DNA of 25,155 nt from contig JAXDQU010000075.1 in assembly GCA_034667685.1 (NCBI GenBank), positions 1-25,155 of the forward strand, read 5' to 3'. This DNA is from Thermoplasmata archaeon. Its GTDB lineage: Archaea > Thermoplasmatota > SW-10-69-26 > JACQPN01 > JAJPHT01. Positions 4,813 through 25,155 of this stretch are shown in pieces (within the stretch, counting starts at the first letter, position 1; the number at the start of each line of letters is the position of its first letter). The translations under genes were made by a program, and so were the position numbers. The notes beneath the pieces were generated by a model, which was not told the DNA's origin, ran no database searches, and was given only the letters and a program-made list of their open reading frames with translations.

Positions 4813-4910
4813 GTGACCCGCAGGGAAAACCCGAGAACCCGCGGACCCGACGACCCCGTTTCGCCGCGGGTTTTCGGGTCATCGGGTCCGCGGGTTTCAG
4901 CCGGGGTCAC
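4813..4910. repeat. Periodic palindrome, 8-bp unit nnnACCCG x4 / CGGGTnnn x4
   Basis: aaaacccg agaacccg cggacccg acgacccc (4826-4857), spacer, then cgggtttt cgggtcat cgggtccg cgggtttc (4867-4898). Outer arms gtgaccc/gggtcac. Confidence 0.85.
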
Positions 4911-4913
4911 TCC

Positions 4914-5312
4914 TCAATGCGCTGTTTCCAGGAACTTCCGGTACGCCGCGGCGTCCATGAGCTTGGACAGCGCGTCCTTGTCCGCGACCTCGATGACGCA
5001 GAACCAGCCCTTGCCGTAGGGGTCGTGGTTCATCAGCTCGGGCTCGTCGTCCAGCGCCGCGTTGGCCTCCACGACCTTGCCGGCGAGGGGGGCGAAGACG
5101 TCGTTCACGGACTTCACGGACTCGACGACGCCCATGGAGTCGTGGTGGCCGAACTCGTCCCCGACGTCGGGAAGCTCGACGTACACGACGTCCGTGAGCG
5201 CCTCCTGCGCGTAGTCGGTGATGCCGATCTTGGCGCGGCTGCCGTGGACTTCGACCCACTCGTGGTCTTCCGTGTAGCGCAGGTGGTCGGGGACCTTCGA
5301 GGGGCCAGCCAT
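4914..5312 (-). CDS. gcvH: Glycine cleavage system H protein
   Basis: LRYTEDHEWV, IGITDYAQEALTDVVYVELP, lipoyl-lysine motif VESVKS, DPYGKGW. ATG at 5312. Confidence 0.96.
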   Translation of the reverse strand: MAGPSKVPDHLRYTEDHEWVEVHGSRAKIGITDYAQEALTDVVYVELPDVGDEFGHHDSMGVVESVKSVNDVFAPLAGKVVEANAALDDEPELMNHDPYGKGWFCVIEVADKDALSKLMDAAAYRKFLETAH

Positions 5313-5407
5313 GCCGGCGGCTACTGAAGCGGCGCGCTTCAAGATTTCTGCGGCAAACGGGGGGCTCGGGGGGCTGAGCCGCCCGACCATATCCTCGGCT
5401 TGCCGCG

Positions 5408-5488
5408 GCGCTTCGCTTTCCGCCATCACGCCAAGACGCCAACACGCCGCGTGTTGGCGTGTTCGCGTGATGGCGGAAAGCGAAGCGC
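5408..5488. repeat. Periodic palindrome, 8-bp unit CGCCAnnA x3 inside a ~39-bp inverted repeat
   Basis: gcgcttcgctttc cgccatca cgccaaga cgccaaca cg-ccg-cg tgttggcg tgttcgcg tgatggcg gaaagcgaagcgc; two mismatches. Confidence 0.85.
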
Positions 5489-5530
5489 GGGCAGGGACAA
5501 CCACCGCAGAGCGTGGTCGTGAAGCAGCCC

Positions 5531-7369
5531 CTAGACCGGACCCAGGCCCGCGTCCAGCCCGCCCACGAGCACGAACGCCGCGAAGGTGTCCGCGTTGTTG
5601 GTCGAGTCGACGTCCACGAAGCGTGGCGCCGAGACGGTGGCCTTCAGGTCGACGTCGCCCGCGTAGCCCACGGGGCTCCAGCCGAACGTGACCTCGCGCG
5701 TCTCGCCGGGCGCCAGGTCCGCGAGCGTCGTGCTGCCCACGAAGCCGGGGGCGAGGATGCCCGTGCGGCCCTGCGCGGTGAGCGTCACCGTGGGGAAGGC
5801 GATCGTCGCATTGCCCAGGTTCGTGACGTTCACGTGCACGTGGCGCGTGGCGACGGGGTTGCCCATGATGGGGCCCGCGTCGGTGCGGATGATGGGCTGG
5901 TCGACGCCGACGATCTTCACGGCCAGGTCGCCGCGCGGGAGCGGCGCGACGTAGACGCTCACGTTGGCGACGTTGTTCCCCTCGTCGCTCTCCTTGACCT
6001 GGGCGCGGCTGTCGGCGAACGCGGTGACCGTGTGCGTGCCGGCGGTCGTGCCGTTCCAGAGCGCGCCGACCGTGTACGTCGCGCCGGGCGCCAGCGAGGG
6101 CACGCCCCGGGTGCCGAGCGCGAGGCCGTCCGCGTAGACGGTGGCGTTGCTCGGGCCGGCGGTGGCCGCGCCGACGTTCTGGACGGTCGCGAAGACGAAC
6201 GTCGACTCGCCCTCGGTGAGGTTGCCGAGGACCGTGACGTTCGAGACGACGAGGTCGGCCTGGTCGGAGGTGACGTTGATGGCGTCCGTGAGGCCGTTCG
6301 TGCCCCACGCGTAGTTGCCCCAGACGTCCTCGACGTACGCGTAGCGGAGCTTGTAGAGGCCCGGGGGCGTCGAGGCGCCCACGAAGCCCGTGGCGTTGCC
6401 GTAGGAGCCGGGCGTCTCGTTGCCGTACCACGACGCGGAGATGCTTCGCTGGCAGCTGTCGTCGAGGCAGTAGTCGAACCACGCCGACTGGATGTTGCTC
6501 GCGTCGGAGACGGTGTAGTTGACGGCGAAGCTGTCGCCCGCGCGCGCGGAGCCGGGACCGGCGACGGCCTCCAGCACCGGGGGCTGGTCGTCCACGGAGG
6601 CGTTCGCGTCGCCGAAGGCGAAGGTGGGTCCGTGGGGCTCGGCGTAGAGCATGTTGCCCCACTGGTCCCAGGCGTAGACGTAGCTCAGCGTGTAGTTGCC
6701 CGGGAGGAGGTTCGCGGGGAGCGTGGTGTACGCGTTGTCGTAGCTTCCGGAGGGCTCGCGCCCCGACCAGAAGACCGAGACCTGGTGCGACGAGCAGTTG
6801 GACTCGCGGCAGAACGTGAACTGCGCGTTCGTGAGGTTGCTCGCGTCCGAGACGTCGTAGGAGACGCGCAGCTCGTCGTTGGCGTAGAACTGCGTGCCGT
6901 TGATCGCGAAGTTGGTCAGGACGGGCGGGTCCACGTCGACGGTCGCGTTGGGGTCGCCCACGGTGAAGCTGAGGTTGGTCACGTTGGACGCGTAGCCGCC
7001 GTTGCCGTACTCGTCGCCCGCGTAGATCCAGACGAGGGAGTAGTTGCCCGGCAGCGTGTCGTTCGAGACGTAGGCCGTGCTGTTGCTGTACGTGCCGCTG
7101 GGCTCGTGGCCCCACCACGTCGTGTCGATCGAGTGGGTGCAGTTCGCATCGCGGCAGAAGAGCGCCTGGACGGTCGTGACGTTGCTCGCGTCGCTCACGG
7201 TGTAGTTGAGCGCCACGGTGTCGCCTGCCTCGTAGTGTGAGGCGTTGAGGTGCGCCGCAGTGACGGAGGGCGGGGTCGTGTCGCCGCCCGCCGCCAGCAG
7301 GGTGGGCGCGGGCAGGAGGACGGCGATCACGAGCAGGATGGCGAGACGAGACGTGTTGGTAACGGACAG
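5531..7369 (-). CDS. Secreted protein with three tandem Ig-like repeats and two CARDB-like domains
   Basis: Hydrophobic signal region RLAILLVIAVLLP. Three ~125-aa repeats DxxPPxx...YxVSDASN...CxxxxC...LPGNY/TPPGLY...DxxGN. Then ADLVVSNV...TVQNVG...ESDEGNN and GDLAV...TNLGN...DSTNN. Start uncertain (CTG 7369 or GTG 7330; the ORF is open to 7483). Confidence 0.8.
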   Translation of the reverse strand: MSVTNTSRLAILLVIAVLLPAPTLLAAGGDTTPPSVTAAHLNASHYEAGDTVALNYTVSDASNVTTVQALFCRDANCTHSIDTTWWGHEPSGTYSNSTAYVSNDTLPGNYSLVWIYAGDEYGNGGYASNVTNLSFTVGDPNATVDVDPPVLTNFAINGTQFYANDELRVSYDVSDASNLTNAQFTFCRESNCSSHQVSVFWSGREPSGSYDNAYTTLPANLLPGNYTLSYVYAWDQWGNMLYAEPHGPTFAFGDANASVDDQPPVLEAVAGPGSARAGDSFAVNYTVSDASNIQSAWFDYCLDDSCQRSISASWYGNETPGSYGNATGFVGASTPPGLYKLRYAYVEDVWGNYAWGTNGLTDAINVTSDQADLVVSNVTVLGNLTEGESTFVFATVQNVGAATAGPSNATVYADGLALGTRGVPSLAPGATYTVGALWNGTTAGTHTVTAFADSRAQVKESDEGNNVANVSVYVAPLPRGDLAVKIVGVDQPIIRTDAGPIMGNPVATRHVHVNVTNLGNATIAFPTVTLTAQGRTGILAPGFVGSTTLADLAPGETREVTFGWSPVGYAGDVDLKATVSAPRFVDVDSTNNADTFAAFVLVGGLDAGLGPV

Positions 7370-7512
7370 GAGGTGAGCCCCCTCGCAGCCGCGCGAGCCC
7401 CCATGCCCCTCTAAACCCTTCCCGTGAGATCGGCTGCGCGTCCGGCCCACCGGGGGCCCCTCCGGCGCTTTCCGAACCTTCATATCGGCAGACGCGCCGA
7501 GGCCACCTTCGT

Positions 7513-7668
7513 ATGACCCAAGCGGTCCACTACCACCACGCCTGCCGCCAGGGCGGCCCCCGCGAGCTCCCGATCACCTGGGACCGCGTGTCCGGTGGCG
7601 GCCGCGTCTCGTGCCCCATCTGCGGCGTGAGCCGGCTTACGGCCACGATCCGCGGCAACACGATCTGA
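7513..7668 (+). CDS. Small CPxCG-type zinc-finger microprotein (51 aa)
   Basis: MTQAVHYHHACRQGGPRELPITWDRVSGGGRVSCPICGVSRLTATIRGNTI*, with HxC...CPICG. CGAA..TTCATAT promoter-like element at 7473-7485, about 28 nt upstream. Pyrimidine run follows the stop. Shorter than any ORF in the track. Confidence 0.7.
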   Translation: MTQAVHYHHACRQGGPRELPITWDRVSGGGRVSCPICGVSRLTATIRGNTI

Positions 7669-7699
7669 TCTCCCTCTTCTTCTCGGCTCGGGCTCCACG

Positions 7700-7768
7700 C
7701 CAGCCACAGAGGATCACAGAGGAACGAGAAAAGTCGCCTCCGTGACCTCTGTGTCCTCCGTGGCTGGA
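7700..7768. repeat. Periodic palindrome, 9-bp unit CCTCYGTGN (copy 1)
   Basis: ccagccacagaggatcacagagg...cctccgtga cctctgtgt cctccgtgg ctgg. 7735-7768 matches 9492-9525 at 33 of 34 nt. Confidence 0.85.
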
Positions 7769-7787: not shown

Positions 7788-9422
7788 CTACATCGGCTTG
7801 CCGGAGCCCTTGTTCGTGCTCCGGTCAATGACCACGTCGACCACCGACGCCTTGCGCGACGCGAACGCGCGCTCGATGGCGGGCGCGACCTCCTTCGGCT
7901 CCGTCACTCGCTCGCCGTGCCCGCCGCACGCGAGGGCGATCTGGTCGTAGCGCACCTTCTGCGAGAGGCCGGTGGCGACTGCCCTGTCCTCGCCGTAGAA
8001 CGTGAGTTGCGGGTCGCGGATCTGGTTCCATGCGCCGTCGTTGGCGACCACGACCGTGACCGCGATGCCCTGGCGCGCGCAGCTCTCGATCTCCATCCCG
8101 TTGAGGCCGAACGCGCCGTCGCCCGAGAGCACGAGCACCTTCTTGGCCGGGTGGACGAGCTTGGCGGCCATCGCGAAGGGGAGGCCGACGCCCAGCGTGC
8201 CGTACGGGCCGGGGTCGAGCCAGTGGCCGGGTTGGCCGATCTCCAGCACCTTGCCCGCGAGCGCGACGATGTTGCCCCCGTCGCCGATGACCAGCGTGCT
8301 CTCGTCGATCGCGTCGTTGAAGCCCTTGAGCATGGCCAGCGCGTGCATCGGGTCGCCGCCTTCGGCCATCGTCGCGGCGTTCTCGGCCACCTTCTTCTCG
8401 TCGTGCGCGCGCAGCTTCGCCATCCAGCCCGCGCGGTCCGGCATCGGGCGGCCGCGCACGAGCGCGTGCAGGTCGCGCAGCGCGAGGCCGACGTTGCCCA
8501 CGAGGCCGACCTCCACGGGGCGGCGACCCAGCGCGGCGGCGGTCGTGTCCACGTGGACGACCTGCGCGTCGGGGTTCACGCCCTCGCCGAAGTTCATGCG
8601 GAAGTCGAAGGGCGTCGCGAAGTCGAGGATGACGTCGGCCTCCGCGAGCGCCTTGCCGCGCGAGTGGACGAGGAAGCGCGGGTGGCCGCGGGGCAGCATG
8701 CCGCGCGCCAGTCCGTTGAGGTAGAAGGGCGCCTCGTAGGCGTCCGCGAAGGCCCGCAGCGCGTTCTCGCCGTGCCCCCACCAGACGCCGGCGCCCGCGA
8801 GCACGACCGGGCGCTCGGCGCGTGATAGCAGATCGGCCGCGCGGCGCAGGTCCACCTCGTCGGGGCGGACGTGGAACGGCACGCGCTGGCGGCCCGCGGG
8901 GTACGTGGGCTCGGGCGCCTCGGCGAAGAGGATGTCCCAGGGCACTTCCAGGAACGCGGGGCCGGTGCGCGGGCTCGTGGCCTCGCGGAACGCGGTGTGG
9001 ACGTGGTCTTGGAGGAGCCGAGTCTCGAAGCACGACGCGGTCCACTTGCACAGCGGCGCGAGCACGGGCGCCTGCGGCCCCTCCTGGAGCGCGCCCTGGC
9101 CGAAGCGCACGAAGTCGCTCTGGCCGCCGATGACGACCACCGGCGAGTCGGCCGCGCGCGCGTTGGCGACGCCGGTCACGCCGTTCATGACGCCGGGGCC
9201 CGCGGTGACGGCCGCGACGCCCGGGTTGCGCGTGAGGCGCGAGACCGCGTCGGCGGCCATGACGGCGGCCTGCTCGTGGCGCACGTCCACGACGCGGATG
9301 CCCTCGTCGAGGCACCCTTCGTAGATCGGCATGATGTGGCCGCCGCAGAGCGTGAAGAGGTGCGTCACGCCCTCGTCCTTGAGCGCGCGGGCGACCTGCT
9401 TGCCGCCGTGCATGTCTGCCAT
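7788..9422 (-). CDS. Thiamine diphosphate-dependent enzyme, acetolactate synthase-like (ILVBL/2-hydroxyacyl-CoA lyase-like)
   Basis: FTLCGGHI, DVRHEQAA, TAGPG, WLDPGPYGTLGVG, and ThDP motif GDGAFG...NDGAW. Confidence 0.9.
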   Translation of the reverse strand: MADMHGGKQVARALKDEGVTHLFTLCGGHIMPIYEGCLDEGIRVVDVRHEQAAVMAADAVSRLTRNPGVAAVTAGPGVMNGVTGVANARAADSPVVVIGGQSDFVRFGQGALQEGPQAPVLAPLCKWTASCFETRLLQDHVHTAFREATSPRTGPAFLEVPWDILFAEAPEPTYPAGRQRVPFHVRPDEVDLRRAADLLSRAERPVVLAGAGVWWGHGENALRAFADAYEAPFYLNGLARGMLPRGHPRFLVHSRGKALAEADVILDFATPFDFRMNFGEGVNPDAQVVHVDTTAAALGRRPVEVGLVGNVGLALRDLHALVRGRPMPDRAGWMAKLRAHDEKKVAENAATMAEGGDPMHALAMLKGFNDAIDESTLVIGDGGNIVALAGKVLEIGQPGHWLDPGPYGTLGVGLPFAMAAKLVHPAKKVLVLSGDGAFGLNGMEIESCARQGIAVTVVVANDGAWNQIRDPQLTFYGEDRAVATGLSQKVRYDQIALACGGHGERVTEPKEVAPAIERAFASRKASVVDVVIDRSTNKGSGKPM

Positions 9423-9467
9423 GCGTGGTCGAGCGGCCCGCGTTGGCTAAGCCCTTTTCCCTGCGCG

Positions 9468-9525
9468 TCCAGCCGCGGAGGACGAGAAAACCGCCTCCGT
9501 GACCTCCGTGTCCTCCGTGGCTGGA
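9468..9525. repeat. Periodic palindrome, 9-bp unit CCTCCGTGN (copy 2)
   Basis: tccagccgcggagga...cctccgtga cctccgtgt cctccgtgg ctgga. Same orientation as the copy at 7700-7768. Confidence 0.85.
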
Positions 9526-9573
9526 AGCGCGTGAGGACAACATTCACAAGCGCGCGCCCGCGTGCCCGACCAC

Positions 9574-9774
9574 GTGAACGTCGCCGACGCCAAAGGCCTC
9601 ACCTTCGAGTGCCAGCCCGGCTGCGGCTCCGCTGCGGCTGGCGTACCAGCCGGCAATACGCCCTACGCGCCCCGCTCCGCGCCGCAAGCGGCGCTTCGGG
9701 GGCGATAAGCCTGTCCGGTGGGAACGTCCAGGACGCGCGCGGACTCACCTTCGAGTGCCAGCCCGGCTGCGGCT
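9574..9774 (+). other. Duplicated gene 5' end: 31-bp exact direct repeats (9598-9628, 9744-9774) bounding a 115-bp unique insert
   Basis: ctcaccttcgagtgccagcccggctgcggct occurs twice, 146 bp apart. Copy 1 reads GTG-NVADAKGLTFECQPGCG and ends at TAA 9706-9708. Copy 2 reads GGG-NVQDARGLTFECQPGCGFCC and continues into the full gene. Confidence 0.85.
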
Positions 9775-10826
9775 TCTGCTGTACCGCGACGCCGCTGGTG
9801 CTGCCGCACGAGGCGGGGCCGCTGGGGCCGCTCGTCGTGCGCGCGGAGGACGGCACGCTCCGCATCCCGATGACGGGACCGGCGTGCGGCGCGCTGCGGG
9901 CGGATCGGGCGTGCGGCGTCTACGAGGTCCGGCCCAGCGTGTGCCACCTCTACCCCTACCAGGTCCACGCGGGGCGGCGCATCCAGGCGACGGTGAGCCT
10001 GGGCTGCCCCGGAATCGCGGAGGCGCACGCGCTCCACCCCGCGCAGGCGCACCCGTTCGGCGTGGACAAGCGCGCGGAGGACGGGGCCACGCGCGCCATC
10101 GCGCTGGCGCTCGCGCAGCCGGGCGCGCAGGAGCAGGCCGCGCGGGCGAAGCAGACGTTCGTCGAGTTCGACCGCCGCATGAAGGAGTGGGGCGTGCACG
10201 CGACGTCCGACAAGCTGCGCAGCGCGTTCGTGCCGCGCCTGGAGAGCTTCGCGCGGCCCGAGCTGCTCCCCGCGCTCTTCGCCGGCCTCTCCGAAGGCGA
10301 CCTCCTGCTCGACGATCCGGGCGCCGTCGCCGCGCTCTTCGAGACGGAGCCGCAGGCCGACCTCGAGGACCTGCTCGTGGAGGGCGCGGCCGATGCGTTC
10401 GACGAGCCGGACACGGTGATCTGGGTCGAGGCCGACCATGCGTGGACGCAGGCGCGGGCCGAGGCGGGCGAGGTCGTGCTGACGCGCACGCCGGGCGGCG
10501 AGCGCCGTCTCGCGGTGGATGCGCTCCCCACGGCCTGGACCGACGAGGCGCGCGACGCGCTCGCCGCCTACCTCGCGCGGCTCTGCGGGCGCGACCAGAC
10601 CGAAGGAGCGGCGGCGTGGCTCGTCGACGCCTCGGGCTATCAGGCGACGCTTCCCGCCGCGTACGCGCGCGTGCTGGGCGAGGCCTCGCTCCAGGTCGCG
10701 CTGCGCGCCGGCCTCCTCGCGGCGGAGGAGGGCGCGCCGGAGATCACGCTTGCGCTGGCCCGCCGCGGGGTCGCGGCCTACGAGACGAGCTATCATTCTC
10801 TCCCCACGCTGGGGGCCATCCTGTGA
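9711..10826 (+). CDS. YkgJ-family (CxxCxxCC) cysteine-cluster protein; start disrupted/uncertain
   Basis: FECQPGCGFCC, CGALRADRACGVYEVRPSVCHLYPY, CPGI. No in-frame ATG/GTG just before the first motif (CTG at 9711 is the nearest option). The original start is probably GTG 9574, in another frame. Confidence 0.75.
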   Translation: MSGGNVQDARGLTFECQPGCGFCCTATPLVLPHEAGPLGPLVVRAEDGTLRIPMTGPACGALRADRACGVYEVRPSVCHLYPYQVHAGRRIQATVSLGCPGIAEAHALHPAQAHPFGVDKRAEDGATRAIALALAQPGAQEQAARAKQTFVEFDRRMKEWGVHATSDKLRSAFVPRLESFARPELLPALFAGLSEGDLLLDDPGAVAALFETEPQADLEDLLVEGAADAFDEPDTVIWVEADHAWTQARAEAGEVVLTRTPGGERRLAVDALPTAWTDEARDALAAYLARLCGRDQTEGAAAWLVDASGYQATLPAAYARVLGEASLQVALRAGLLAAEEGAPEITLALARRGVAAYETSYHSLPTLGAIL

Positions 10827-11095
10827 TCGACGCGCAGCCCCGCGTCGTGCTCGCGGCCACGCTCTTCCGCGTCGCGATGCCGCGCGTCGCCTCCGCCCTC
10901 GCGCCGCGCAAGCCCGAGGCGCGCACGAAGGAGCTGCTGCTCGCGACGCTGGAGCGCGGCGTGTGGGAGCTGCCCGACGACGCGCTCGCGGGATACGACG
11001 GCACCGAGGCGTGGGGCGACGAGGCGGCCCAGCGCCCCGCGGTGAAGGTGCTCCTGGAGCGCGCGATCATGATGGCCGTCTCGGGGCAGCCATGA
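10823..11095 (+). CDS. Hypothetical protein (90 aa)
   Basis: Coupled to both neighbours by GTGA and ATGA stop/start overlaps; coding-like codon usage. Confidence 0.7.
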   Translation: MIDAQPRVVLAATLFRVAMPRVASALAPRKPEARTKELLLATLERGVWELPDDALAGYDGTEAWGDEAAQRPAVKVLLERAIMMAVSGQP

Positions 11096-11880
11096 GGCGG
11101 CTCGTCCTGCTGCTCGCGGTGATCGCGGCGCCCGTCGCGCAAGCGAGCGCCGAGGGGTTCAGCCACGAGGTGCGCATCGTGGGGCGCGTGGTCGACGCGG
11201 ACGGGGCGCCGGTCGCCGGCGTCACGATCGCGGTCGCGCTCCACGGGGCGACGTCGCTGGGCGGCTGCCTCTTCGGCGCGCACTCCGACGCGACGGACGC
11301 GAACGGCGACTTCGTCCTCTGCCGCCACGTGCACGCGCTGCCGGAGAACGCGACCGCGGCGCTGACCGTCGAGGGCGCCAGCGTCGACGTGCCGATCGAC
11401 GCGCGGCTCCGGCTCGGCGTCGCGCGCCTCCAGCTCAACGGCACGCATGCGGGCGGCGCCATTCCCGCGTCGGTCCGCGTGGCGGGCCGCATCGTCTTCG
11501 CGCACCCCGGGGGCGAGCGGATCGAGGGCGTGAACGTCACGGCCACGCCGCTCTCGGGGCTGCCCGTCACGCTCCGGCTCGACGCGGGCCCGCGCGTGCT
11601 CGCCACGGCGAACGCGACGACGGACGAGAACGGCGACTACGCGGCGGACCTGCCGTGGGCCGCGAACGCGACGGTCACGCTGGAGGCCAGCGGCCGCGTC
11701 TCCACGGCCAGCGTGGACGCCTGGCGGCGCGTGGACCTCGACCAGGTGCACGTCGCGGCGCCTCCGCCCCCCGCGAGGCCTGGCACCGGCACGCCGCGCA
11801 TCCCGGGGCCGGAGGTCGCGCTCGTCTTCGCCGCGATCGCGCTCAGCGCATGCGCCCGATGGAGATCCCGACCAACGTGA
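11092..11880 (+). CDS. Secreted protein with carboxypeptidase-regulatory-like beta domains and a PGF-CTERM-like sorting tail
   Basis: Signal peptide MRRLVLLLAVIAAPVAQA. Two GRV/I...TDxNGDF/Y domains. Pro-rich linker, then IPGPE, a TM helix and a basic tail RWRSR. Confidence 0.75.
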   Translation: MRRLVLLLAVIAAPVAQASAEGFSHEVRIVGRVVDADGAPVAGVTIAVALHGATSLGGCLFGAHSDATDANGDFVLCRHVHALPENATAALTVEGASVDVPIDARLRLGVARLQLNGTHAGGAIPASVRVAGRIVFAHPGGERIEGVNVTATPLSGLPVTLRLDAGPRVLATANATTDENGDYAADLPWAANATVTLEASGRVSTASVDAWRRVDLDQVHVAAPPPPARPGTGTPRIPGPEVALVFAAIALSACARWRSRPT

Positions 11881-13351
11881 TGCCCACCGCGCCGACGCCG
11901 ACGAGGATCAGCACGTAGGCCTTGCCCTCGCGGACCATCGCGTCCATGTCGTAGGTGAACTGCTCGATGGGGCTCTGCTTGGCGGGCGCGGGGACGGTCG
12001 CCAGGAGCGAGGCGAACTGCGGCTGGCCCAGCAGCGTGGGGTCCTTGGCGACCTGGACGGCGGCGATGGCGTTGACGAAGCCGAAGCCCGTGTCGTTGTC
12101 GCGCCCCTTCGGGCCGAGGTCCTGCGCGGTGACGAGCAGGATCTTCTTGACGTCCTGGGGCGTGAGCTGCGGGTTGACCTGGAGCATCAGCGCGACGACG
12201 CCCGCGACGTGGGGCGTCGCCATGCTCGTGCCGCTGAGCGTGCCGTAGAAGCCCGCGCTCTGCTGGCCGAAGAGGCCCGAGACGGAGGAGGTCGAGGGCG
12301 GGACGGTGCTCGTGATGTCAGACCCGGGCGCCACGATGTCGGGCTTCTGGAGGTGCGTCGCGACGGTGGGCCCGCGGCTGGAGTAGCCCGCGATGCGCTT
12401 CTGCTTGTCCACGGCGCCCACGGTGATCGCGTTGGCGGCGGCGCCGGGCGCGGTGATGGTCTGCGGACCGGGGCCGGCGTTGCCTGCGGCGGCGACGATG
12501 ACGAGCCCCTTCTCGACGGCCTGGTTCACGCCCTGGCAGATGGCGTCGTTGCCGTCGGAGGGCGTGCCGCCCAGGCTCATCGTGGCGACGCGGATGTTGT
12601 CCGACTTCATGTGGTCGAGCACCCAGTCGAGCCCCTTCAGGACGACGCTGGCGGTGGTCGAGTTCGCGGCGGTGAAGACCTTGACGTTGACGAACGACGC
12701 GTCGGGCGCCACGCCCTTGTAGAGGCCGCCGGACTGGCCGCCCCCGCCGACGGCGATGCCCGCGACGTGCGTGCCGTGCCCTTCCGTGCCCGCGGGGGCG
12801 ACGACGGTGATGCCGCCCGGGCCGGTGGGCGCGATGCCGCCGGCGTCGAAGTGGTCGACGATCTTGTCCTTGAAGTCGGGGTGCTGCTCGAAGGCGCCGT
12901 CGTCGATGATCGCGACGGTCTGCCCCTTGCCGGTGGCGCCGTAGTCCTTCCAGACCTGCGGCGCGCCGATGAGCGGCACGGAGTCCTTGAGCATCAGGTA
13001 CATCGGCGCGTCGTGCTCCACGAGGACGACGCCGGGCATGGCGCGCAGCGAGGCGACCTGCGCCGGGAGGGCGCGCACGACGAGGAAGGGGAAGTTGTGA
13101 TAGCTCTGCGCGACCTCGATCCCCGCCTGGTCGAGCGCGGCGCGCTGCGCGGGCGTGGGCATCGTCGCGTAGTCGAGGAAGACGGAGATCGGCTCGTGCC
13201 CCGTGAGCGCCTGGAGCGAGTCGTCGATGCCGTCGTGGTCCTGGTCGAGGTAGGTGCGCGTCCACCAGGGCGGGTCGCCGCCCGGGACGGCGCGCGCGCC
13301 CAGCGGAAGGGCGAGAAGGATCAGAATGAGGCCCCAAGCCAGCGCGCGCAC
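11843..13351 (-). CDS. S8 family (subtilisin-like) serine peptidase, secreted, C-terminal membrane anchor
   Basis: Triad motifs VAIIDDG, GHGTHVAG, GTSMATPHVAG; oxyanion AAAGN; signal peptide; DQDHDGIDD motif; C-terminal hydrophobic helix. Confidence 0.95.
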   Translation of the reverse strand: MRALAWGLILILLALPLGARAVPGGDPPWWTRTYLDQDHDGIDDSLQALTGHEPISVFLDYATMPTPAQRAALDQAGIEVAQSYHNFPFLVVRALPAQVASLRAMPGVVLVEHDAPMYLMLKDSVPLIGAPQVWKDYGATGKGQTVAIIDDGAFEQHPDFKDKIVDHFDAGGIAPTGPGGITVVAPAGTEGHGTHVAGIAVGGGGQSGGLYKGVAPDASFVNVKVFTAANSTTASVVLKGLDWVLDHMKSDNIRVATMSLGGTPSDGNDAICQGVNQAVEKGLVIVAAAGNAGPGPQTITAPGAAANAITVGAVDKQKRIAGYSSRGPTVATHLQKPDIVAPGSDITSTVPPSTSSVSGLFGQQSAGFYGTLSGTSMATPHVAGVVALMLQVNPQLTPQDVKKILLVTAQDLGPKGRDNDTGFGFVNAIAAVQVAKDPTLLGQPQFASLLATVPAPAKQSPIEQFTYDMDAMVREGKAYVLILVGVGAVGITLVGISIGRMR

Positions 13352-13427: not shown

Positions 13428-13925
13428 CTACTTGCGCTTGCCCTTGGCCTTCTTGGCCTTCTTGCCGCCGGTCTTCTTGGCGACCTTCTTGGTGGCCTTC
13501 TTGCCGCCCTTCTTGGCGACCTTCTTCGTGGCCTTCTTGGCGACCTTGCGGGTGGCCTTGCGGCCGCCGGTCTTCTTGGCGGACTTGGCGGCGACCTTCT
13601 TGGCCTTGGCGGCCTCGCGGCGGGCCTTGGCGCGCGCCTTGCGCTCCTCCATCATGGCCTTGCGCTTCGCCTCGCGCTTCATCTTGCGCTCGGCGGCGCG
13701 CTTCTTGGCCTCGGCGCGCTGCTCGCGCCACTTGCTGCCGCCCTTGCGGCGCAGGATGGGCAGGCCCGTGCGGGTCGTCGTGGCGACCTCGTAGCCCTGG
13801 GGGAGCTCCGCGGGCGAGCCCGACTTGGGCTTGTTGCGCGCGAAGAAGTAGATCGTCTGCTGGCGGCCGCCCTTCAGGGTGACCGTCCGGCTGTACAACG
13901 TGTAACCGTCCTTCTGGAAGGGCAT
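13428..13925 (-). CDS. Small basic domain fused to a Lys/Ala-rich histone H1-like tail
   Basis: ATG 13925. MPFQKDGYTLYSRTVTLKGGRQQTIYFFA...GYEV...TGLPILRRK, a charged helix, then repeated KKVAKK/KKATKK/KKTGG. Confidence 0.85.
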   Translation of the reverse strand: MPFQKDGYTLYSRTVTLKGGRQQTIYFFARNKPKSGSPAELPQGYEVATTTRTGLPILRRKGGSKWREQRAEAKKRAAERKMKREAKRKAMMEERKARAKARREAAKAKKVAAKSAKKTGGRKATRKVAKKATKKVAKKGGKKATKKVAKKTGGKKAKKAKGKRK

Positions 13926-13970
13926 AGATATCCCGCGTGAGAACGCGCAGCGGGGGTGCATAAGGTTGTC

Positions 13971-14145: not shown

Positions 14146-14235
14146 GGGGCTATGGGCTCAGGACTCTGGACTCGGGGCTCTCCGGGTGCGAGGCAAGCGG
14201 GAGCCCCGAGTCCAGAGTCCTGAGCCCATAGCCCC
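14146..14235. repeat. Periodic palindrome, 7-bp unit nGGRCTC x5; perfect 35-bp arms, 20-nt loop
   Basis: ggggcta tgggctc aggactc tggactc ggggctc / gagcccc gagtcca gagtcct gagccca tagcccc. Confidence 0.92.
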
Positions 14236-14261: not shown

Positions 14262-14642
14262 GTGGACTTCGAGCTGATCACGCGCCGCCTCTGCCTGATC
14301 AAGGACACCGGGCACGCCGGCGTCCTGTGGGGCGGCAACATGATGGCGTGGGTGGACGAGGCGGGCGCCATCTACGCCGGACGCCAGGTGCGCAACCGGT
14401 ACATGGTCACGAAGGCGTTCACCGAGATCGACTTCCAGAGCCGCGTCGTGCCCGGCGACATGGTGAGCTTCTACGGCCGCGTCGCCAAGGTCGGACGCAC
14501 CAGCCTCGCCATCGACCTGCGCGTCACCGCGACGCACCCCGCCGACGAGGACGAGCGCGAGGTGCTCTCCGTCACGGGCGTCTTCGTGGCGATCGACGAT
14601 GCCGGGAACAAGGAGCAAATCTCCCTGGCGCGGCGGGCGTGA
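14262..14642 (+). CDS. Acyl-CoA thioesterase, HotDog fold (YciA-like)
   Basis: DTGHAGVLWGGNMMAWVDEAG, IDF...PGD, KVGRTSL, VFVAID. Confidence 0.9.
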   Translation: MDFELITRRLCLIKDTGHAGVLWGGNMMAWVDEAGAIYAGRQVRNRYMVTKAFTEIDFQSRVVPGDMVSFYGRVAKVGRTSLAIDLRVTATHPADEDEREVLSVTGVFVAIDDAGNKEQISLARRA

Positions 14643-15001: not shown

Positions 15002-16537
15002 CTAGCTGCTCGTCGGCACGTCGACGCTCAACGAGACCTGGTAGAGTCCGGGCTCGCGGTTCGTGGCGTGCGCGGCGTCGCTCGTGCTGACCTGGAGGCC
15101 GAGGGTGTGGCCCGCGGGGATCACGTAGTCGACGCCGACGAGGTCGACGTCCGCGCGGCTTGCGCTGAGGGGCGAGACGGGCATGCGGAACGCTTGCGTC
15201 TGGCCGTCGAGCACGACGCCGCTGGTCTTGTCGACGAGGCGGAAGAACAGGAACGCTTCGGTGCCCGCTCCGCTGACGCTGAGGTGGACGTGGCCGATGC
15301 CGCTGACCTCGGTGTCGCTCGCGAAGGTCGCGACGGGCACGATGGCGCTGCCCACGCCGTCGTCGAGGACGGGGGCGGCCGCGCCGCCGTTGACGCCGCC
15401 CGCGCCGACGTTGAAGCTGCCGCCGCCCGTGGGGGCCGGGGTGGACGCGAGCTGGAGGTCGGCGGAAGCGTGGAGCCAGCGGCCCTCCTCGGGGGGCCAG
15501 GTCTCCGCGCCGTGCCAGGCGCCGGTGTTGTCCTCCCACTGGATGCCCTGCGGGACGGCGGGGGCGCCCTGGAGCCAGTGCTGGAGCCAGGCGACGGTCG
15601 CGTCGTCCACGACGGAGCCGGGGCCCGCGTAGGGGCAGCCGGCGTGGCCGCCGCAGTAGAGGACCAGCGAGGCGGGGACGTGCTGCGCGCGCAGCGCGTT
15701 GAGGTTCGCCATCGCCTCGTTGGGGTTGAACAGCGTGTCGGGCAGGCCCTGCGTGAGGAGCGTGGGCGCGCGGATGCGGCTCATCCAGGCGGCGGCGCTG
15801 CGCTCGTAGAGGCCCTGCGCGACGTCGGCCGTCACGCCGTTGGTGGCGTGGACCTCGGCGTACCACAGGGGGAGATTGATATCATAGCTCTGGGCCTGCT
15901 CGCCGGCGGGGCCGCCGGGCTCCAGGCCGTACGCGGTGCCGGTGGCGACGCCCGCGCCGAAGAGGACCTGGATCCAGCCTTCCTTGGGCACGCCGCCGGG
16001 GCCGAGGCTCTGGCGGAGGTCGTTCCAGGTGATATCAGGGACGATGGCGTCGATGCGCGGGTCGAAGGCGGCGGTCAGGAGCTGGATGCCGCCCGCGTAG
16101 GAGCCGCCCGCCATGCCCACGACGGGGTCGCCCGCGCCATCGAGCTTGATGCCCGGCGTGGCCGCGAGGACATCCACGAGGGCGCTCGCGTCGCGCACCT
16201 CGTACGCCGGGGAGTCGAGCTCGATGAAGCCGCCCGACTGGCCGAAGCCGCGCGAGTCCCAGGTGAGGACCGCGAAGCCCGCGCCGAGGAGGCGCCCCAC
16301 CATGCCGCCCGCGCTGGTGGCGCGCGAGCCGGCCCAGCCGTGCGTCATGAGCACCGCGGGGACCGGGTGGTCCGCGTCGGCGCCCGCGGGCATGAACAGG
16401 GTGTAGACGATGGGCGTGCCGTCGAAGGACGTGAGCACGCTCGTGGTGATCGACGGGGACGCCTCGGCCGGCGCGACGAAGGCGGGGACCGCCATCATCG
16501 TCGCAAGGGCCAGCGTCGCTAGGGTGACGAGCCTCAA
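15002..16537 (-). CDS. Secreted CocE/NonD (peptidase S15-like) alpha/beta hydrolase
   Basis: Signal peptide, SFDGTPI, THGWAG, WDSRGFGQSGG, nucleophile GGSYAGG, DTLF, CGGH; TTG start. Confidence 0.9.
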   Translation of the reverse strand: MRLVTLATLALATMMAVPAFVAPAEASPSITTSVLTSFDGTPIVYTLFMPAGADADHPVPAVLMTHGWAGSRATSAGGMVGRLLGAGFAVLTWDSRGFGQSGGFIELDSPAYEVRDASALVDVLAATPGIKLDGAGDPVVGMAGGSYAGGIQLLTAAFDPRIDAIVPDITWNDLRQSLGPGGVPKEGWIQVLFGAGVATGTAYGLEPGGPAGEQAQSYDINLPLWYAEVHATNGVTADVAQGLYERSAAAWMSRIRAPTLLTQGLPDTLFNPNEAMANLNALRAQHVPASLVLYCGGHAGCPYAGPGSVVDDATVAWLQHWLQGAPAVPQGIQWEDNTGAWHGAETWPPEEGRWLHASADLQLASTPAPTGGGSFNVGAGGVNGGAAAPVLDDGVGSAIVPVATFASDTEVSGIGHVHLSVSGAGTEAFLFFRLVDKTSGVVLDGQTQAFRMPVSPLSASRADVDLVGVDYVIPAGHTLGLQVSTSDAAHATNREPGLYQVSLSVDVPTSS

Positions 16538-17027: not shown

Positions 17028-18683
17028 GTGCGCCTCGCCCTCGCGCTCGCCTTTGCCCTCGTCCTTCCGGTGGTCGCCGGCTGCCTCGCCTCGACCTCCG
17101 CGCCGACGACGACGAACGCGAGCGCCCTCCTTTCGCAGCCGCTGTTCAACGCGACGAAGAAGGAGCAGGCGCTCCTCCCGATGGCGGACGGCGTGAAGCT
17201 CGACAACTGGGTCTTCCGCCCCGACGCGCCCGGGCAGTTCCCGGTCCTCATCGAGTCGCGCCCCTACTTCGGCAACGCGGACCCGCCGGCGAAGGACGGC
17301 GGCCAGAAGTTCAGCAAGTGGCTCGCGGAGTACTTCGTCCCGCGCGGCTACGTCGTCGTGCTCCACAGCGTGCGCGGCACGGGCGACTCCGAGGGGTGCT
17401 ACGGCCAGGGCGGCCTGATCGAGCAGAAGGACGAGGCCGCGACGGTCGAGGCGTTCGCCAAGATGCCCTACAGCAACGGCAACGTCGCGATGATCGGCAA
17501 GTCCTACGGCGGCACGACGCCCTGGGAGGCCGCGGTGCAGGCGCCGCCGCACCTGCGGACGATCGTGCCGATCGAAGGCATCACGGACTGGTACAAGTAT
17601 CTCTTCACGCACGGCGTCACGATCGGCTCGCAGGTGGGCTTCGACGCGACGTATCTCACTGAGATCAGCTACAACATGGGCGCTGGCGTGCCGCAGCCCT
17701 CGCAGACGCAGATCGCCAACTATCCGGGCAAGGCGTGCCAGGACACCGCGCAGATGCAGACCTCGGAGGAGAGCGCGCACGCCACCGGCGACAAGGACGC
17801 CTGGTGGCAGGAGCGCGACTACGAGGCGCACGTCGACGCGATCAACAAGGCGAACGTCAGCGTCTACCTCGTGCACGGCTTCCAGGACTGGAACGTGAAG
17901 CCGGACCACGTCGCGACGATCTACAACAAGATCACCACCGAGAAGCGTCTCGTGTTCGGCCAGCAGGACCACCAGTATCCGCTGCGCGCGGACTGGGGCG
18001 AGGACCTGCTGCGCTGGTTCGACCACACGCTCAAGGGCGTCGACAACGGCATCGAGAAGACGCAGCCCGTCATGCTCCTCGACAGCGCGGGCGTCTGGCA
18101 CACGGAGGACAGCTTCCCGCCGGCTCGCGCGGTCGCGACCGTCGTTCCGCTGAAGTTCGACCAGGACAGCTACGTGCCCACGCCCGCGAGCGAGGCCAAC
18201 GACCCGACGGCCGGCCCGGACAAGCTCGTCTGGAAGGGGACGCCCGCCACGGCCGACGTGCACGTCTCGGGCAGCCCCGTGCTCGCGTTCAACGCGACGG
18301 TCGCGGGCGCCAACGCGCAGTTCATCGCGGCGCTCTATGATATCAACGGCTCGACGTGGAAGCCCGTCGACTGGGCCGCCATCGACGCGCGCCACCTGAC
18401 CGACGACACGCAGAGCGCGCCGGTCACGCCGGGCAGCACGTTGGGCGTCAAGGTCGCGCTCTACCCCCTGGACCACGACCTGGCGCCGGGGCATGCCTGG
18501 GGCCTCGTGCTCACCGGGGCGGGCGGCTACTGGAAGGTCAACGACCAGGCCAGCGGCTCGGTCGTCGAGGGGCAGGTCACGGTGGGCGGCGCGACGCTCA
18601 CGTTCCCCGTGCTCCCCGACTTCCACGCCGAGTCGCCCCAGCCCACGATGAAGAAGGCGGACGACCTGCCCTGGACGAGCTGA
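17028..18683 (+). CDS. CocE/NonD family hydrolase (X-Pro dipeptidyl-peptidase-like) lipoprotein
   Basis: Lipobox VAGC, MADGVKL, VRGTGDSEGC, GKSYGG, HGFQDWNV, GQQDH. Confidence 0.9.
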   Translation: MRLALALAFALVLPVVAGCLASTSAPTTTNASALLSQPLFNATKKEQALLPMADGVKLDNWVFRPDAPGQFPVLIESRPYFGNADPPAKDGGQKFSKWLAEYFVPRGYVVVLHSVRGTGDSEGCYGQGGLIEQKDEAATVEAFAKMPYSNGNVAMIGKSYGGTTPWEAAVQAPPHLRTIVPIEGITDWYKYLFTHGVTIGSQVGFDATYLTEISYNMGAGVPQPSQTQIANYPGKACQDTAQMQTSEESAHATGDKDAWWQERDYEAHVDAINKANVSVYLVHGFQDWNVKPDHVATIYNKITTEKRLVFGQQDHQYPLRADWGEDLLRWFDHTLKGVDNGIEKTQPVMLLDSAGVWHTEDSFPPARAVATVVPLKFDQDSYVPTPASEANDPTAGPDKLVWKGTPATADVHVSGSPVLAFNATVAGANAQFIAALYDINGSTWKPVDWAAIDARHLTDDTQSAPVTPGSTLGVKVALYPLDHDLAPGHAWGLVLTGAGGYWKVNDQASGSVVEGQVTVGGATLTFPVLPDFHAESPQPTMKKADDLPWTS

Positions 18684-18688
18684 GACCC

Positions 18689-22602: not shown

Positions 22603-22623
22603 TCGTCTCGTCCCGCGCGCCGC

Positions 22624-22699
22624 AACACGAAGGCACGAAGCCACGAACGCGCAAAACGCCCCGCAGCTTCGTGCCTTCGTGCCTTCGTGCCTTCGTGTT
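22624..22699. repeat. Periodic palindrome, 8-bp unit nnCACGAA x3 / TTCGTGnn x4 (copy 1)
   Basis: aacacgaa ggcacgaa gccacgaa, 20-nt spacer, ttcgtgcc x3, ttcgtgtt. Confidence 0.9.
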
Positions 22700-22714
22700 C
22701 CTGGAGGCTTGTCC

Positions 22715-23701
22715 ATGAGCAGAATCCTCCTGGCCGGCCACGGCAACGTCGGCAAGGCGTTCCACGAGCTGCTCATCGAGGAGAAGCCGCGCCTGGAGAC
22801 GATCCTGGGCGAAGCGCCGCGCGTCGTCGGCGTGCTGCGCCGCAGCGGCGCGTGGCTCGACGAGAACGGCGTGGGCGTCGGCGGCACGCTGCTGTCGAAA
22901 CGCCAGAGCATGTCCGTCGTCGAGGCGCTCGACAAGGTGCGGCCCGACGTCTTCGTCGAGCTGACCACGAGCAACCTGCAGACCGGCGAGCCGGGCGCGT
23001 CGTACATCCGCGCGGCGCTGGAGCGCGGCATCCCGGTCGTCACCGCGAACAAGGGCCCGCTGCTGCGCCACTACGAGGGCCTGACCCGGCTGGCGCGCGA
23101 GAAGGGCGTCGCATTCCGCTTCGAGGGCACGGTCGCCGGCTCGATCCCGACGCTGAACCTCCACGAGTTCACCCTGGTGGGGAACCCCGTCCTCCGCTTC
23201 GACGGCATCCTCAACGGCACCTCGAACTACATCCTCACGCGCATGGCCGAGGAAGGGCTCGCGTTCGCCGACGCGCTCAAGGAGGCGCAGGAGCTGGGCT
23301 ACGCCGAGGCCGATCCCACCGCGGACGTGGGCGGGCACGACGCCGCGGCGAAGCTCGTCATCCTGGCGAACCACGTCCTCGGCCTGCGGCTGACGTTCGA
23401 CGACGTGCAGCGCGAAGGCATCGAGCGCATCAGCGCGGCCAGCATCCGCCTCGCGGCGAAGGAAGGCTACGCCATCCGGCTCATCGCCACCGCCGACGCG
23501 CGCACGCGCCAGGCCAGCGTCCAGCCGCGCCTCGTGCCCGTCGACTCGCCGCTCAACGTCCGCGGCTCGCTCAACGTCGTGCGCTTCACCACCGCGCACG
23601 CGGGCGCCTTCACCATCTCGGGCAAGGGCGCCGGAGGGCGTGAGACCGCCACTGCCGTGCTCTCGGACGTGATCCACGTGCTGCGGGCCTCGCGTCCCTA
23701 G
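22715..23701 (+). CDS. hom: Homoserine dehydrogenase (no fused ACT domain)
   Basis: GHGNVG, VVTANKGP, EGTVAG, GILNGTSNYIL, LGYAEADPTADVGGHDAAAK, GKGAGGRETA. GGAGG precedes ATG 22715. Confidence 0.95.
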   Translation: MSRILLAGHGNVGKAFHELLIEEKPRLETILGEAPRVVGVLRRSGAWLDENGVGVGGTLLSKRQSMSVVEALDKVRPDVFVELTTSNLQTGEPGASYIRAALERGIPVVTANKGPLLRHYEGLTRLAREKGVAFRFEGTVAGSIPTLNLHEFTLVGNPVLRFDGILNGTSNYILTRMAEEGLAFADALKEAQELGYAEADPTADVGGHDAAAKLVILANHVLGLRLTFDDVQREGIERISAASIRLAAKEGYAIRLIATADARTRQASVQPRLVPVDSPLNVRGSLNVVRFTTAHAGAFTISGKGAGGRETATAVLSDVIHVLRASRP

Positions 23702-23750
23702 GCGCGCTTCCCGCGGCGCCGAAGGCGCGAACGTTGAAGACCGGCCGGGC

Positions 23751-25112
23751 GTGTCGCCGCGCGTGCACCTCGCGGCCCTGGCGCGCTACCCCTTCCTCCC
23801 CGAAGCGGCGCAAGCCGCGGCGGCGGAGGGGCCTTCGCTGGAGGAGCTGATCGGGGACCGCGTGTGGGCCGGCGCGCGCCGCCAGGGCATCGAGCGGCTC
23901 CGGCAGGCGATCGACCAGGGCGAGCTTCCCCCCGCGGCGCTGGGCGAGGCGTCGGGGCGGCGCGAGCTGCTGGAGGACCTGCTCGCCTACGTGTACGCGC
24001 GCATCCTGGTGTGCGCGCTGGACGACGCGTACGTGGTGCGCCGGCACGCGCTCGCGGAGGCGGTGCGCGTCAAGTCCTTCCTGGAGGGCGAGGCCGACCT
24101 CGATCTCGTCGCGCGCGCGGCGGTCACGCTGGGCCTGGGCTTCGAGCCGGAGCCGGACGGCAGGCACCTGCGCGCGCACTTCACCGACTACCTGCGCTAC
24201 GCAGTGCACCTGAAGGACATGGAGTGGAAGCTCGTCACGCAGCCCCTGGAGCATGGCTGGGTGCGGCTCGACGCGCGCAAGACGAGCCGCCTCGTGCAGG
24301 AGGCGCTTCGCCGCAAGATCGAGTCGGAGCTGCCGCGCGAGATCAGCGACGAGGTGCGCAAGGCCGTCGAGCCCGACGCGGCGCCGCTGCGCGAGACCGC
24401 GCGCGTCCGCAAGGAGGCGATGTCGCCCACGCAGTTCGGCAAGGTGCGCCTCGACGCGATGCCGCCCTGCATGGGGCACCTGCTCGCCGAGCTCCAGCAG
24501 GGCGTCAACGTGGCGCACAACGGCCGCTTCGCCATCACCACCTTCCTCCACAAGATCGGCCTGGGCAGCGAGGACATCATGCGGCTCTTCGCGCAGGCGC
24601 CGGATTTTCGCGAGGACCTCACGCGATATCAGGTCGAGCACATCACGGGCGTCACGTCGAGCACCGTCTACAGCGTGCCCGGCTGCGACAACCTCCAGAC
24701 GTTCAACATGTGCTACGCGGACGACCTGTGCCGCAGCAAGACGAAGGCGGGCGTGGCGCGCGTGAAGTATCCCGGCGACTACTACCGCTACGTGTCCGAG
24801 GCGGCCGACGTCGTGGACGCCCTCGCGGCGAAGGCGCGCGTCGCCGACCCCAAGGCGCTCACGGGCGCGCTGGCGATGAGCTACGGCCCGATGGCGCGCC
24901 TGCGCGAGATCACAGGGAGCCCCGAGTTCGCCGCGATGGATCCGGCCGCGCTCGCCGCGTGGATCGACCGCACGCCCGGCGTCCCCGCCTCGGTCGTGGA
25001 GGGCGCGCCGCTCCTGCTCGTGGACGGGAAGGACACGTGGGCGCCGGTCAAGGTGCTCGAAGCGTTCCTGGGGCGGAACGTGGGGCGCCAGAACCCTGCA
25101 CCCCAGACGTGA
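23751..25112 (+). CDS. priL: DNA primase large subunit with C-terminal extension
   Basis: ARYPFL N-terminus, WKLVTQPLEHGWV, PPCM, HNGRF, PDFREDLTRYQVEHI, and YSVPGC...MC...LC (four Fe-S cysteines). Start may be GTG 23763, 23 nt after TTGAAG. Confidence 0.93.
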   Translation: MSPRVHLAALARYPFLPEAAQAAAAEGPSLEELIGDRVWAGARRQGIERLRQAIDQGELPPAALGEASGRRELLEDLLAYVYARILVCALDDAYVVRRHALAEAVRVKSFLEGEADLDLVARAAVTLGLGFEPEPDGRHLRAHFTDYLRYAVHLKDMEWKLVTQPLEHGWVRLDARKTSRLVQEALRRKIESELPREISDEVRKAVEPDAAPLRETARVRKEAMSPTQFGKVRLDAMPPCMGHLLAELQQGVNVAHNGRFAITTFLHKIGLGSEDIMRLFAQAPDFREDLTRYQVEHITGVTSSTVYSVPGCDNLQTFNMCYADDLCRSKTKAGVARVKYPGDYYRYVSEAADVVDALAAKARVADPKALTGALAMSYGPMARLREITGSPEFAAMDPAALAAWIDRTPGVPASVVEGAPLLLVDGKDTWAPVKVLEAFLGRNVGRQNPAPQT

Positions 25113-25131
25113 CCCCTTCCGGGGCCGCTTG

Positions 25132-25155
25132 AACACGAAGTCACGAAGCCACGAA
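25132..25155. repeat. Left arm of the 8-bp CACGAA periodic repeat (copy 2, cut by the window edge)
   Basis: aacacgaa gtcacgaa gccacgaa; 23 of 24 nt identical to 22624-22647. Confidence 0.85.

Follow-up and report, generated by a model that had tools for sequence, protein, structure and literature searches.

Families of small palindromic repeats have, to our knowledge, received much study in bacteria and are barely described in archaea. The closest known kind in behaviour to the elements reported here is that of bacterial repetitive extragenic palindromic (REP) elements and the REP doublets forming hairpins (REPINs). Two further points of comparison are miniature inverted-repeat transposable elements (MITEs), which depend on a transposase supplied in trans and occur in archaea as well as bacteria, and short-period tandem repeats such as the cyanobacterial short tandemly repeated repetitive sequences (STRR), which are heptamer repeats. 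Most bacterial REPs are found downstream of coding regions (PMC3733652), REPINs have reportedly not been detected in archaea so far (preprint 10.1101/2021.07.10.451892), and repeats of 6-9 nt have seldom been reported (PMC4692102). Here we describe seven intergenic palindromic elements, E1 to E7, in a 25,155-nt stretch of DNA from a soil archaeon of the Thermoplasmata (GenBank assembly GCA_034667685.1, contig JAXDQU010000075.1; the whole stretch is called the window below). The window is ~71% G+C and archaeal; among its genes is one for the large subunit of primase (Pfam DNA_primase_lrg, E 2.4e-29). Most of the larger intergenic gaps of this genome, as seen in the window, hold such short, very stable hairpins with arms of 7- to 9-base units, and we consider it roughly an even call that they are co-resident families of small non-autonomous, non-coding palindromic repeat elements (58-98 bp) with slippage-prone arms.

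An earlier note, made from the letters of the window, had listed seven intergenic elements. All are there, and an inverted-pair search, Tandem Repeats Finder (TRF) and RNA folding agree on the following features, the last of which is given for comparison only.

E1, 4813-4910: palindrome of 8-bp units with core ACCCG; arms of 21 nt at 95%; TRF period 8, 3.5 copies
E2, 5408-5488: near-perfect palindrome of 81 bp whose arms are separated by 1 nt, its inner part made of 8-bp units with core CGCCA
E3, 7700-7768: member of a 9-bp family (CCTCYGTG) with termini CCAGCC...GGCTGG
E4, 9468-9525: second copy of the 9-bp family, oriented as E3, with the left arm short by 12 nt
E5, 14146-14235: perfect 35-bp arms of 7-bp units (GGRCTC) around a loop of 20 nt
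E6, 22624-22699: member of an 8-bp family (CACGAAG), with three units in the left arm and four exact units in the right; inverted arms of 32 nt at 88%
E7, 25132-25155: left end of a second copy of this 8-bp family, cut by the window end, 19 nt past the PriL stop
Non-periodic hairpin, 14947-14992: 19-bp stem (inverted pair at 95%), 9 nt past the stop of an S15 peptidase gene on the minus strand

The unit periods of 7, 8 and 9 bp that had been proposed were recovered by TRF in the arms (periods 7-10, with 2.8-4.1 copies per arm), with two departures. The left arm of E3 has two units at 10-bp spacing, paired with three 9-bp units in its right arm (TRF rows 7705-7723 and 7737-7762), and the outer third of E2 is non-periodic. 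E2 has arms of 40 nt at 95%, both with TRF period 8, E4 has arms of 21 nt at 90% in the inverted-pair search, and E5 has arms of 35 nt at 100% with 4.1 copies at TRF period 7. The right arm of E6 holds 3.9 TRF copies at 100%, and the element is bounded by the terminal inverted repeats AACACGAAG...CTTCGTGTT. Predicted folding energies were -93.4 kcal/mol for E5 whichever strand was folded (z -13.3 and -14.2), -76.8 and -75.8 kcal/mol for E2 (z scores of -11.9 and -10.0), -60.8 (plus strand) and -70.2 kcal/mol (minus strand) for E1 (z -4.2 and -6.2), and -46.3 (plus strand) and -58.5 kcal/mol (minus strand) for E6. The z scores were -5.7 and -7.7 for E3 and -8.0 and -5.5 for E4. The comparison hairpin at 14947-14992 folds at -39.3 kcal/mol (z -6.8) and has no tandem units, and its type of site is like that of the periodic elements.

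The seven-element observation is confirmed: it is real and well beyond chance. Among 66 inverted pairs in the window (within 150 nt), the three longest are E2, E5 and E6, and E1 and E4 also occur. TRF returned 41 rows, and all seven with period 7 or 8 fall inside E1, E2 (two rows), E5, E6 (two rows) and E7; period-9 rows cover the right arms of E3 and E4, and a period-10 row the left arm of E3. A gap-free hairpin detector (arm of at least 14, identity of at least 0.85, loop of at most 40) marked six places in the window, all intergenic (E1, E2, E4, E5, E6 and the hairpin at 14947-14992), missing E3 because its arms differ in unit spacing and E7 because the window end cuts it. On 30 dinucleotide-preserving shuffles the same detector marked a mean of 0.27 places and a maximum of 1. 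Our comparison set comprised 80 loci fetched from species-representative genomes around GcvPA matches (1,346,576 bp in total), in which the detector marked 55 places, equal to 1.03 per 25,155 bp, or 1.20 in loci with G+C of at least 0.65. RNA folds gave z scores of -4.2 to -14.2, and for no element, on either strand, was any of 200 shuffles as stable. In the window, three-unit patterns of each of the five cores were confined to the elements; the 80 loci (1.35 Mb, three relatives among them) held none, which points to lineage-specific cores. The five cores are unrelated and have one layout in common, as the earlier note had it.

Similarity within the pairs E3/E4 and E6/E7 starts and stops sharply at the palindrome termini. 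The alignment of E3 with E4 runs from CCAGCC to GGCTGG, with unrelated left flanks and only a few shared bases in the right flanks, and their right arms agree at 33 of 34 nt (blastn); between E7 and the left end of E6, 23 of 24 nt are identical, and the flanks are again unrelated. Because of these sharp ends in unrelated flanks, we read the elements as discrete families rather than site-specific signals. Copies within a family differ by whole units and at variable unit positions, right arms are more regular than left arms (TRF), and E6 pairs in at least three registers, 8 nt apart. Such unit-number changes, multiple registers and uneven arm regularity are marks of slippage-prone arrays.

Relatives of the source organism were used for comparison at the gcvH-gcvPA junction, where E1 lies. 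Only three of the 80 loci were close by GcvPA identity, all from soil assemblies named 'Thermoplasmatota archaeon' (L001, 73%; L003, 72%; L002, 58%); the remaining 77 are bacterial, with identities of 39-47%. The gcvH-gcvPA-gcvPB synteny is kept in L001 and L002. The gap between gcvH and gcvPA is 151 nt with E1 in the window, ~5 nt in L001, which has no seed array there, and ~70 nt in L002, where it contains no more than a T run and a small GC hairpin; in L003 another gene lies upstream of gcvPA and there is no element. Since the gap is tight or element-free in all three, E1 looks like an insertion relative to each of them. Strict positional conservation, which the earlier note had named as a sign against mobile elements, is not what the relatives show at this junction.

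If the elements are families of small non-autonomous repeats, they would be copied into intergenic DNA, probably as single-stranded hairpins, and handled in trans by an enzyme encoded elsewhere. Their arms would lengthen and shorten via replication slippage, and hairpin pairing would hold both arms complementary. Survival would be mainly just downstream of stop codons, where the transcribed hairpin may act as a leaky terminator or 3'-end protector, as for bacterial REPs and in keeping with the partial termination by one hairpin in Haloferax volcanii; five of the seven elements lie in such places. The window ends inside E7, as would be expected if the assembly breaks at a multi-copy repeat.

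The likeness to REPs and REPINs lies in the small, GC-rich, intergenic palindromes, the several families per genome, the absence of target duplication, the position mostly downstream of coding regions and the possible side effects on mRNA ends, and it extends to size (58-98 bp here and ~100 bp for REPINs). The elements differ in that reading the ends and flanks of all seven revealed no GTAG/CTAC or CGTC/GACG by the stems, the REP tag as given in PMC3733652. They are also single long hairpins with 21-40 bp arms of tandem 7-9 bp units, in contrast to REP stems of 5-13 bp (same source).

MITEs are likewise non-coding, intergenic and present in multiple copies, and have terminal inverted repeats such as those of E3 and E4 (CCAGCC...GGCTGG) and of E6. 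Unlike MITEs, the elements lack target-site duplications and a parent insertion sequence that could be recognised, and the whole element is a hairpin rather than short ends around an unrelated core; neither the window nor L001-L003 gave a blastn match to an insertion sequence sharing those ends. The earlier description as REPIN/MITE-like families is partly supported: the repeats are discrete, with sharp ends and unrelated flanks, but lack the GTAG/CGTC tag and target duplication.

Further likenesses are partial. With short-period tandem repeats, a class that includes long simple-sequence repeats (5-11 nt units) and the TAACTGA repeats of Beggiatoaceae, the elements share intergenic head-to-tail units of 7-8 nt, within that 5-11 nt range, as well as variant units and frequent positions beside genes. 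The known repeats are direct, whereas each array in the window has an inverted partner with which it forms a hairpin, and two families are seen again as entire elements; the TAACTGA repeat survey gives just one inverted case (PMC4679880). Foldback transposons (Drosophila FB, Galileo) also have terminal inverted repeats made of tandem subrepeats (PMC3573991). The number of subrepeats differs from copy to copy. This is an analogy of layout only, since those transposons are eukaryotic and kilobase-scale with known transposases, and the elements here are <100 bp without a coding partner.

Several observations weigh against copying families. E4 and E5 lie in divergent gaps, where a 3'-end role cannot apply, and no T run of at least 5 was found within 40 nt of either end of any element. 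There are only seven copies in 25 kb, three of the five families are single-copy in the window, and copies of the same family lie just 1.7 and 2.4 kb apart, so that local duplication or gene conversion could suffice for E3/E4 and E6/E7 without transposition. A search of all elements against the window and the 80 loci (blastn-short) recovered only the E3-E4 and E6-E7 matches, plus two 16-nt chance matches. We saw no target-site duplication or conserved target at the ends and flanks of E3, E4, E6 and E7; GCGCGT occurs close to each end of E4 with a 2-nt offset, nothing unusual for DNA of ~70% GC. Among the window's open reading frames (ORFs) scanned with Pfam there was no transposase or HUH enzyme, including no REP-associated tyrosine transposase (RAYT) or IS200-type Y1 transposase domain. 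In the REP/REPIN case the repeats flank a cognate gene for such an enzyme, and copies number tens to hundreds per genome. In L001, arrays are direct or strongly asymmetric with no balanced palindromes, which indicates that such arrays can arise without a palindromic mobile unit.

An alternative that we regard as possible though unlikely is that the elements grew in place. Slippage arrays would have become palindromic via template switching or hairpin-templated repair, and copies would stem from local duplication or gene conversion; the shared grammar would then reflect a shared mutational process, making a dedicated protein unnecessary. Such growth would fit five unrelated cores in one layout, arms that are complementary even at variable positions (35 of 35 in E5, 38 of 40 in E2), unit-number variation among copies with several pairing registers, and the short distances between same-family copies (1.7-2.4 kb). 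It is also favoured by the L001 arrays, one of which lies upstream of gcvH, by similar arrays of 7-8 bp units, built on different cores, in loci of Planctomycetota and Chloroflexota, and by the polymerase slippage proposed for the abundance of heptanucleotide repeats in a survey, as quoted in PMC4679880. Growth in place accounts less well for E3/E4 and E6/E7, whose match covers the whole element, including loop and termini, with sharp boundaries in unrelated flanks, or for E1, which adds ~146 nt to a junction of ~5 nt in L001, where no seed array exists.

The comparison loci carry related layouts. Short-period arrays with other cores in L001 include a degenerate CCTCG array just upstream of gcvH and an exact 8-bp array of 7.4 copies. 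At 100-560, L001 also has a 400-nt intergenic mosaic of different short-period arrays, in which runs of xCTCCGCG-like units are followed four times by the ending CCGCGGTGAGCGG, and a CGAGGA-type unit of L001 reappears inverted 9.2 kb away, at 9440-9531. L002 contains two copies (2381-2436 and 11166-11217) of a non-periodic palindrome with 21-22 bp arms that starts with the motif CAGGTGAC. This motif resembles a direct repeat in the window, GGTCAGGTGACnAGACACC, which occurs twice at 14733-14790 in the convergent gap beyond the thioesterase gene. Among bacteria, direct 7-8 bp arrays are common in the Planctomycetota and Chloroflexota loci, and balanced hairpins of units, spacer and inverted units, with 7-bp units, occur in Chloroflexi (L005, 3524-3609), Pirellulaceae (L023, 12285-12358) and Planctomycetota (L066, 9357-9447). 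Because the layout is common to loci of relatives and of bacteria, the elements belong to a broad, little-studied class of short-period repeats. The earlier note had called them the best candidate for an undescribed system in archaea; this was an overstatement, as the grammar is shared with bacterial short-period arrays and the behaviour is like that of REP- or MITE-like repeats. A distinct class of mobile hairpin elements in Archaea, Planctomycetota and Chloroflexota, whose arm units would be read by an enzyme with family-specific specificity, is a doubtful extension of these findings.

In several unrelated bacteria, arrays of 7- to 10-bp units lie immediately ahead of gcvPA or in the gcvT-gcvH gap, a site equivalent to that of E1:

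L005, 9906-9935: gcv-adjacent array
L018, 3555-3582: gcv-adjacent array
L055, 9946-9977: gcv-adjacent array
L064, 1-33: gcv-adjacent array
L066, 9937-9970: gcv-adjacent array
L074, 9950-9980: gcv-adjacent array
L020, 8591-8677: gcv-adjacent array

The loci were sampled around gcvPA, and these arrays therefore carry no conclusion about enrichment beside that gene.

Plasmid sequences were searched with E5, which gave no match, and with E6, for which the sole match was ~12 direct copies of its right-arm octamer in pRi1724 of Rhizobium rhizogenes (NC_002575.1; L081, 1500-1595). The sequence adjoining this array presumably resembles a T-DNA border. We rejected the array as a relative of E6 and treat it as a coincidence of unit, given its direct arrangement, AT-rich context and lack of common ends.

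Position relative to genes bears on a further alternative, which we judge improbable, that the elements are host-selected RNA signals (a terminator, attenuator or mRNA stabiliser per gene) with incidental periodic units. Five of the seven elements, E1, E2, E3, E6 and E7, begin 3, 42, 19, 21 and 19 nt past stop codons, and with the hairpin at 14947-14992 this makes six structures within 3-42 nt of a stop. E1 begins 3 nt past the gcvH stop and ends 50 nt ahead of the gcvPA start (GTG 4762), these 50 nt including a CTTAAG stretch; directly after gcvH, stabilising the upstream message would raise H over P protein. E2 lies 42 nt downstream of the CARDB stop codon, with 95 nt between it and the gcvH start. 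E3 is 19 nt past the stop of the thiamine pyrophosphate (TPP) enzyme gene on the minus strand and 31 nt past a 51-aa ORF on the plus strand. E6 is 21 nt past the stop of the ACT gene and ends 3 nt ahead of the GGAGG of hom (ATG 22715). The other two elements do not fit this pattern: E4 is in the divergent gap 46 nt upstream of the TPP-enzyme start, and E5 in a divergent gap, ending 26 nt ahead of the thioesterase start (GTG 14262). The gene contexts that had been reported thus hold for divergent (E4, E5) and co-directional genes; convergent genes occur only around E3, and there depend on the 51-aa ORF.

In the GC-rich archaeon Haloferax volcanii, hairpins lie upstream of 503 transcript 3' ends, and one terminated 59% of transcripts in vivo (PMC7237163). 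This hairpin-linked termination favours an RNA role, and because of it a leaky-terminator or 3'-end-protector effect of the five gene-following elements is plausible. The likeness is that of a stable hairpin soon after a gene; the elements differ from archaeal hairpin terminators in being multi-copy, unconserved at orthologous sites, present in divergent gaps as well, and far longer than needed. As none of the elements is followed by a T run, they match neither the intrinsic terminators of bacteria nor the T-tract terminators of archaea, and their position between divergent genes in two cases likewise agrees with the earlier view that they are unlike simple terminators. hom must be transcribed through the hairpin of E6, given the 3 nt between that element and the hom ribosome-binding site, which makes E6 intra-operon; strong termination there would silence hom. 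Folding favoured the sense strand for E1 and E3 and the antisense strand for E6, with E2 and E5 equal on both, and without a consistent sense-strand advantage the elements look like a DNA-level palindrome that is sometimes transcribed rather than an RNA shaped for one strand. An Rfam 15 scan gave seven matches at E of at most 1, all below gathering and mostly microRNA-precursor look-alikes at E2, E3 and E5; as all are sub-threshold, no known RNA family applies. Host-selected signals would also be expected neither to be missing from the orthologous junctions of L001-L003 nor to have stems of -45 to -93 kcal/mol, far stronger than required.

It is very improbable that the elements are binding-site arrays or empty cassette boundaries for a dedicated protein, with the direct pairs E3...E4 and E6...E7 bracketing movable gene units. 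A fixed core with variable flanks and a regular period does resemble repeated protein-binding sites, and the TPP-enzyme gene lies between E3 and E4, and hom plus priL between E6 and E7, each pair being in direct orientation. However, the bracketed genes are housekeeping (homoserine dehydrogenase and primase large subunit, by Pfam), the 7-9 bp period is off the helical repeat, and no integrase, nuclease or other handler candidate was found in the window by Pfam. The earlier suggestion that each element might be the empty form of a cassette with its own protein found no footing, as no ORF-containing form was seen and no handling protein is encoded in the window (Pfam). The earlier note had also suggested a link of similar repeats to GxxExxY (TIGR04256) and four-helix-bundle (TIGR02436) proteins. 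NCBIfam matched these in 0 of 150 ORFs, a small sample (12 bacterial loci have 157 ORFs no more than 700 nt from a short-period array, of which 150 were scanned) that does not disprove such a link, and the literature searched yielded no link of GxxExxY, TIGR04256 or TIGR02436 to such repeats. The core sites of integron attC have the form RYYYAAC / GTTRRRY. An attC or gene-cassette identity was rejected because the element ends are unlike this consensus, no integrase was found in the window by Pfam, and the bracketed genes are housekeeping.

An assembly artefact of the metagenome-assembled contig is hardly conceivable, for while the window ends inside E7 and two possible frame changes elsewhere hint at imperfect sequence, six elements are internal with unique flanks, the genes on either side are intact and syntenic with relatives, and the copies of the two-copy families differ at few positions.

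The gene map of the window, based on Pfam matches and a codon-position G+C profile, is as follows.

172-1139, plus strand: two DUF488 genes
1142-1872, minus strand: unassigned gene
1905-3479, minus strand: gcvPB
3419-4762, minus strand: gcvPA, start (GTG 4762) set by alignment with L001
4914-5312, minus strand: gcvH, stop codon at 4914-4916
5531-7483, minus strand: CARDB protein gene
7513-7668, plus strand: 51-aa zinc-ribbon-like ORF (G+C at third codon positions, 0.92)
7788-9422, minus strand: TPP enzyme gene
~9.6-11.9 kb, plus strand: CxxCxxCC-domain gene, then a large secreted-protein region
11843-13351, minus strand: S8 protease gene
13428-13961, minus strand: lysine-rich protein gene
14262-14642, plus strand: thioesterase gene, start GTG 14262
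15002-16537, minus strand, and 17028-18683, plus strand: S15 peptidase genes
~20.0-23.7 kb, plus strand: threonine-pathway block of GHMP kinase, PALP enzyme, ACT protein and homoserine dehydrogenase (hom, ATG 22715)
23751-25112, plus strand: priL

A longer gcvPA ORF from ATG 4882 is a false extension that reads through E1. The DUF488 ORFs are in different frames (172-762 and ~756-1139, plus strand), and the minus-strand gene at 1142-1872 has a weak 'dual OB' (DuOB) match and a codon phase that shifts near 1580; these irregularities at 172-1872 may come from errors in the sequence or from a gene pair with a frameshift. About 50 nt from the start of the CxxCxxCC-domain gene (5' end) occur twice (9574-9625 and 9722-9775), with 31 nt identical and the copies 148 nt apart, hence out of frame. 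The first copy starts 49 nt right of E4, and the true start of the gene is ambiguous. At ~10300-11200, in a plus-strand region with CarboxypepD_reg and Big_1 domains, the codon-position G+C phase switches twice, which suggests frameshifts or several overlapping genes. The product of 13428-13961, whose gene adjoins E5, has 177 aa, no Pfam match and a long lysine/alanine-rich tail with KKVAKK repeats, and is possibly a nucleic-acid-binding protein.

The earlier interpretation is partly supported: the elements are repeat families rather than simple terminators, and the analysis gave no evidence for cassettes or a dedicated system. In our reading they are archaeal palindromic repeats of the REP- or MITE-like kind whose arms have a short period. 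This GC-rich archaeon suits the questions of how hairpin repeats spread without a nearby transposase and how short-period arrays and palindromes generate one another. It also raises the question of whether archaea, with their termination at T tracts, use strong hairpins for 3'-end control within operons, as at gcvH-gcvPA and in the threonine genes. In practical terms, such repeats break metagenome assemblies and create false ORF extensions, as with the reading from ATG 4882. If the mobile-class reading is true, an archaeon would here have its first REPIN-like replicator system, and foldback transposons would have a counterpart in prokaryotes.

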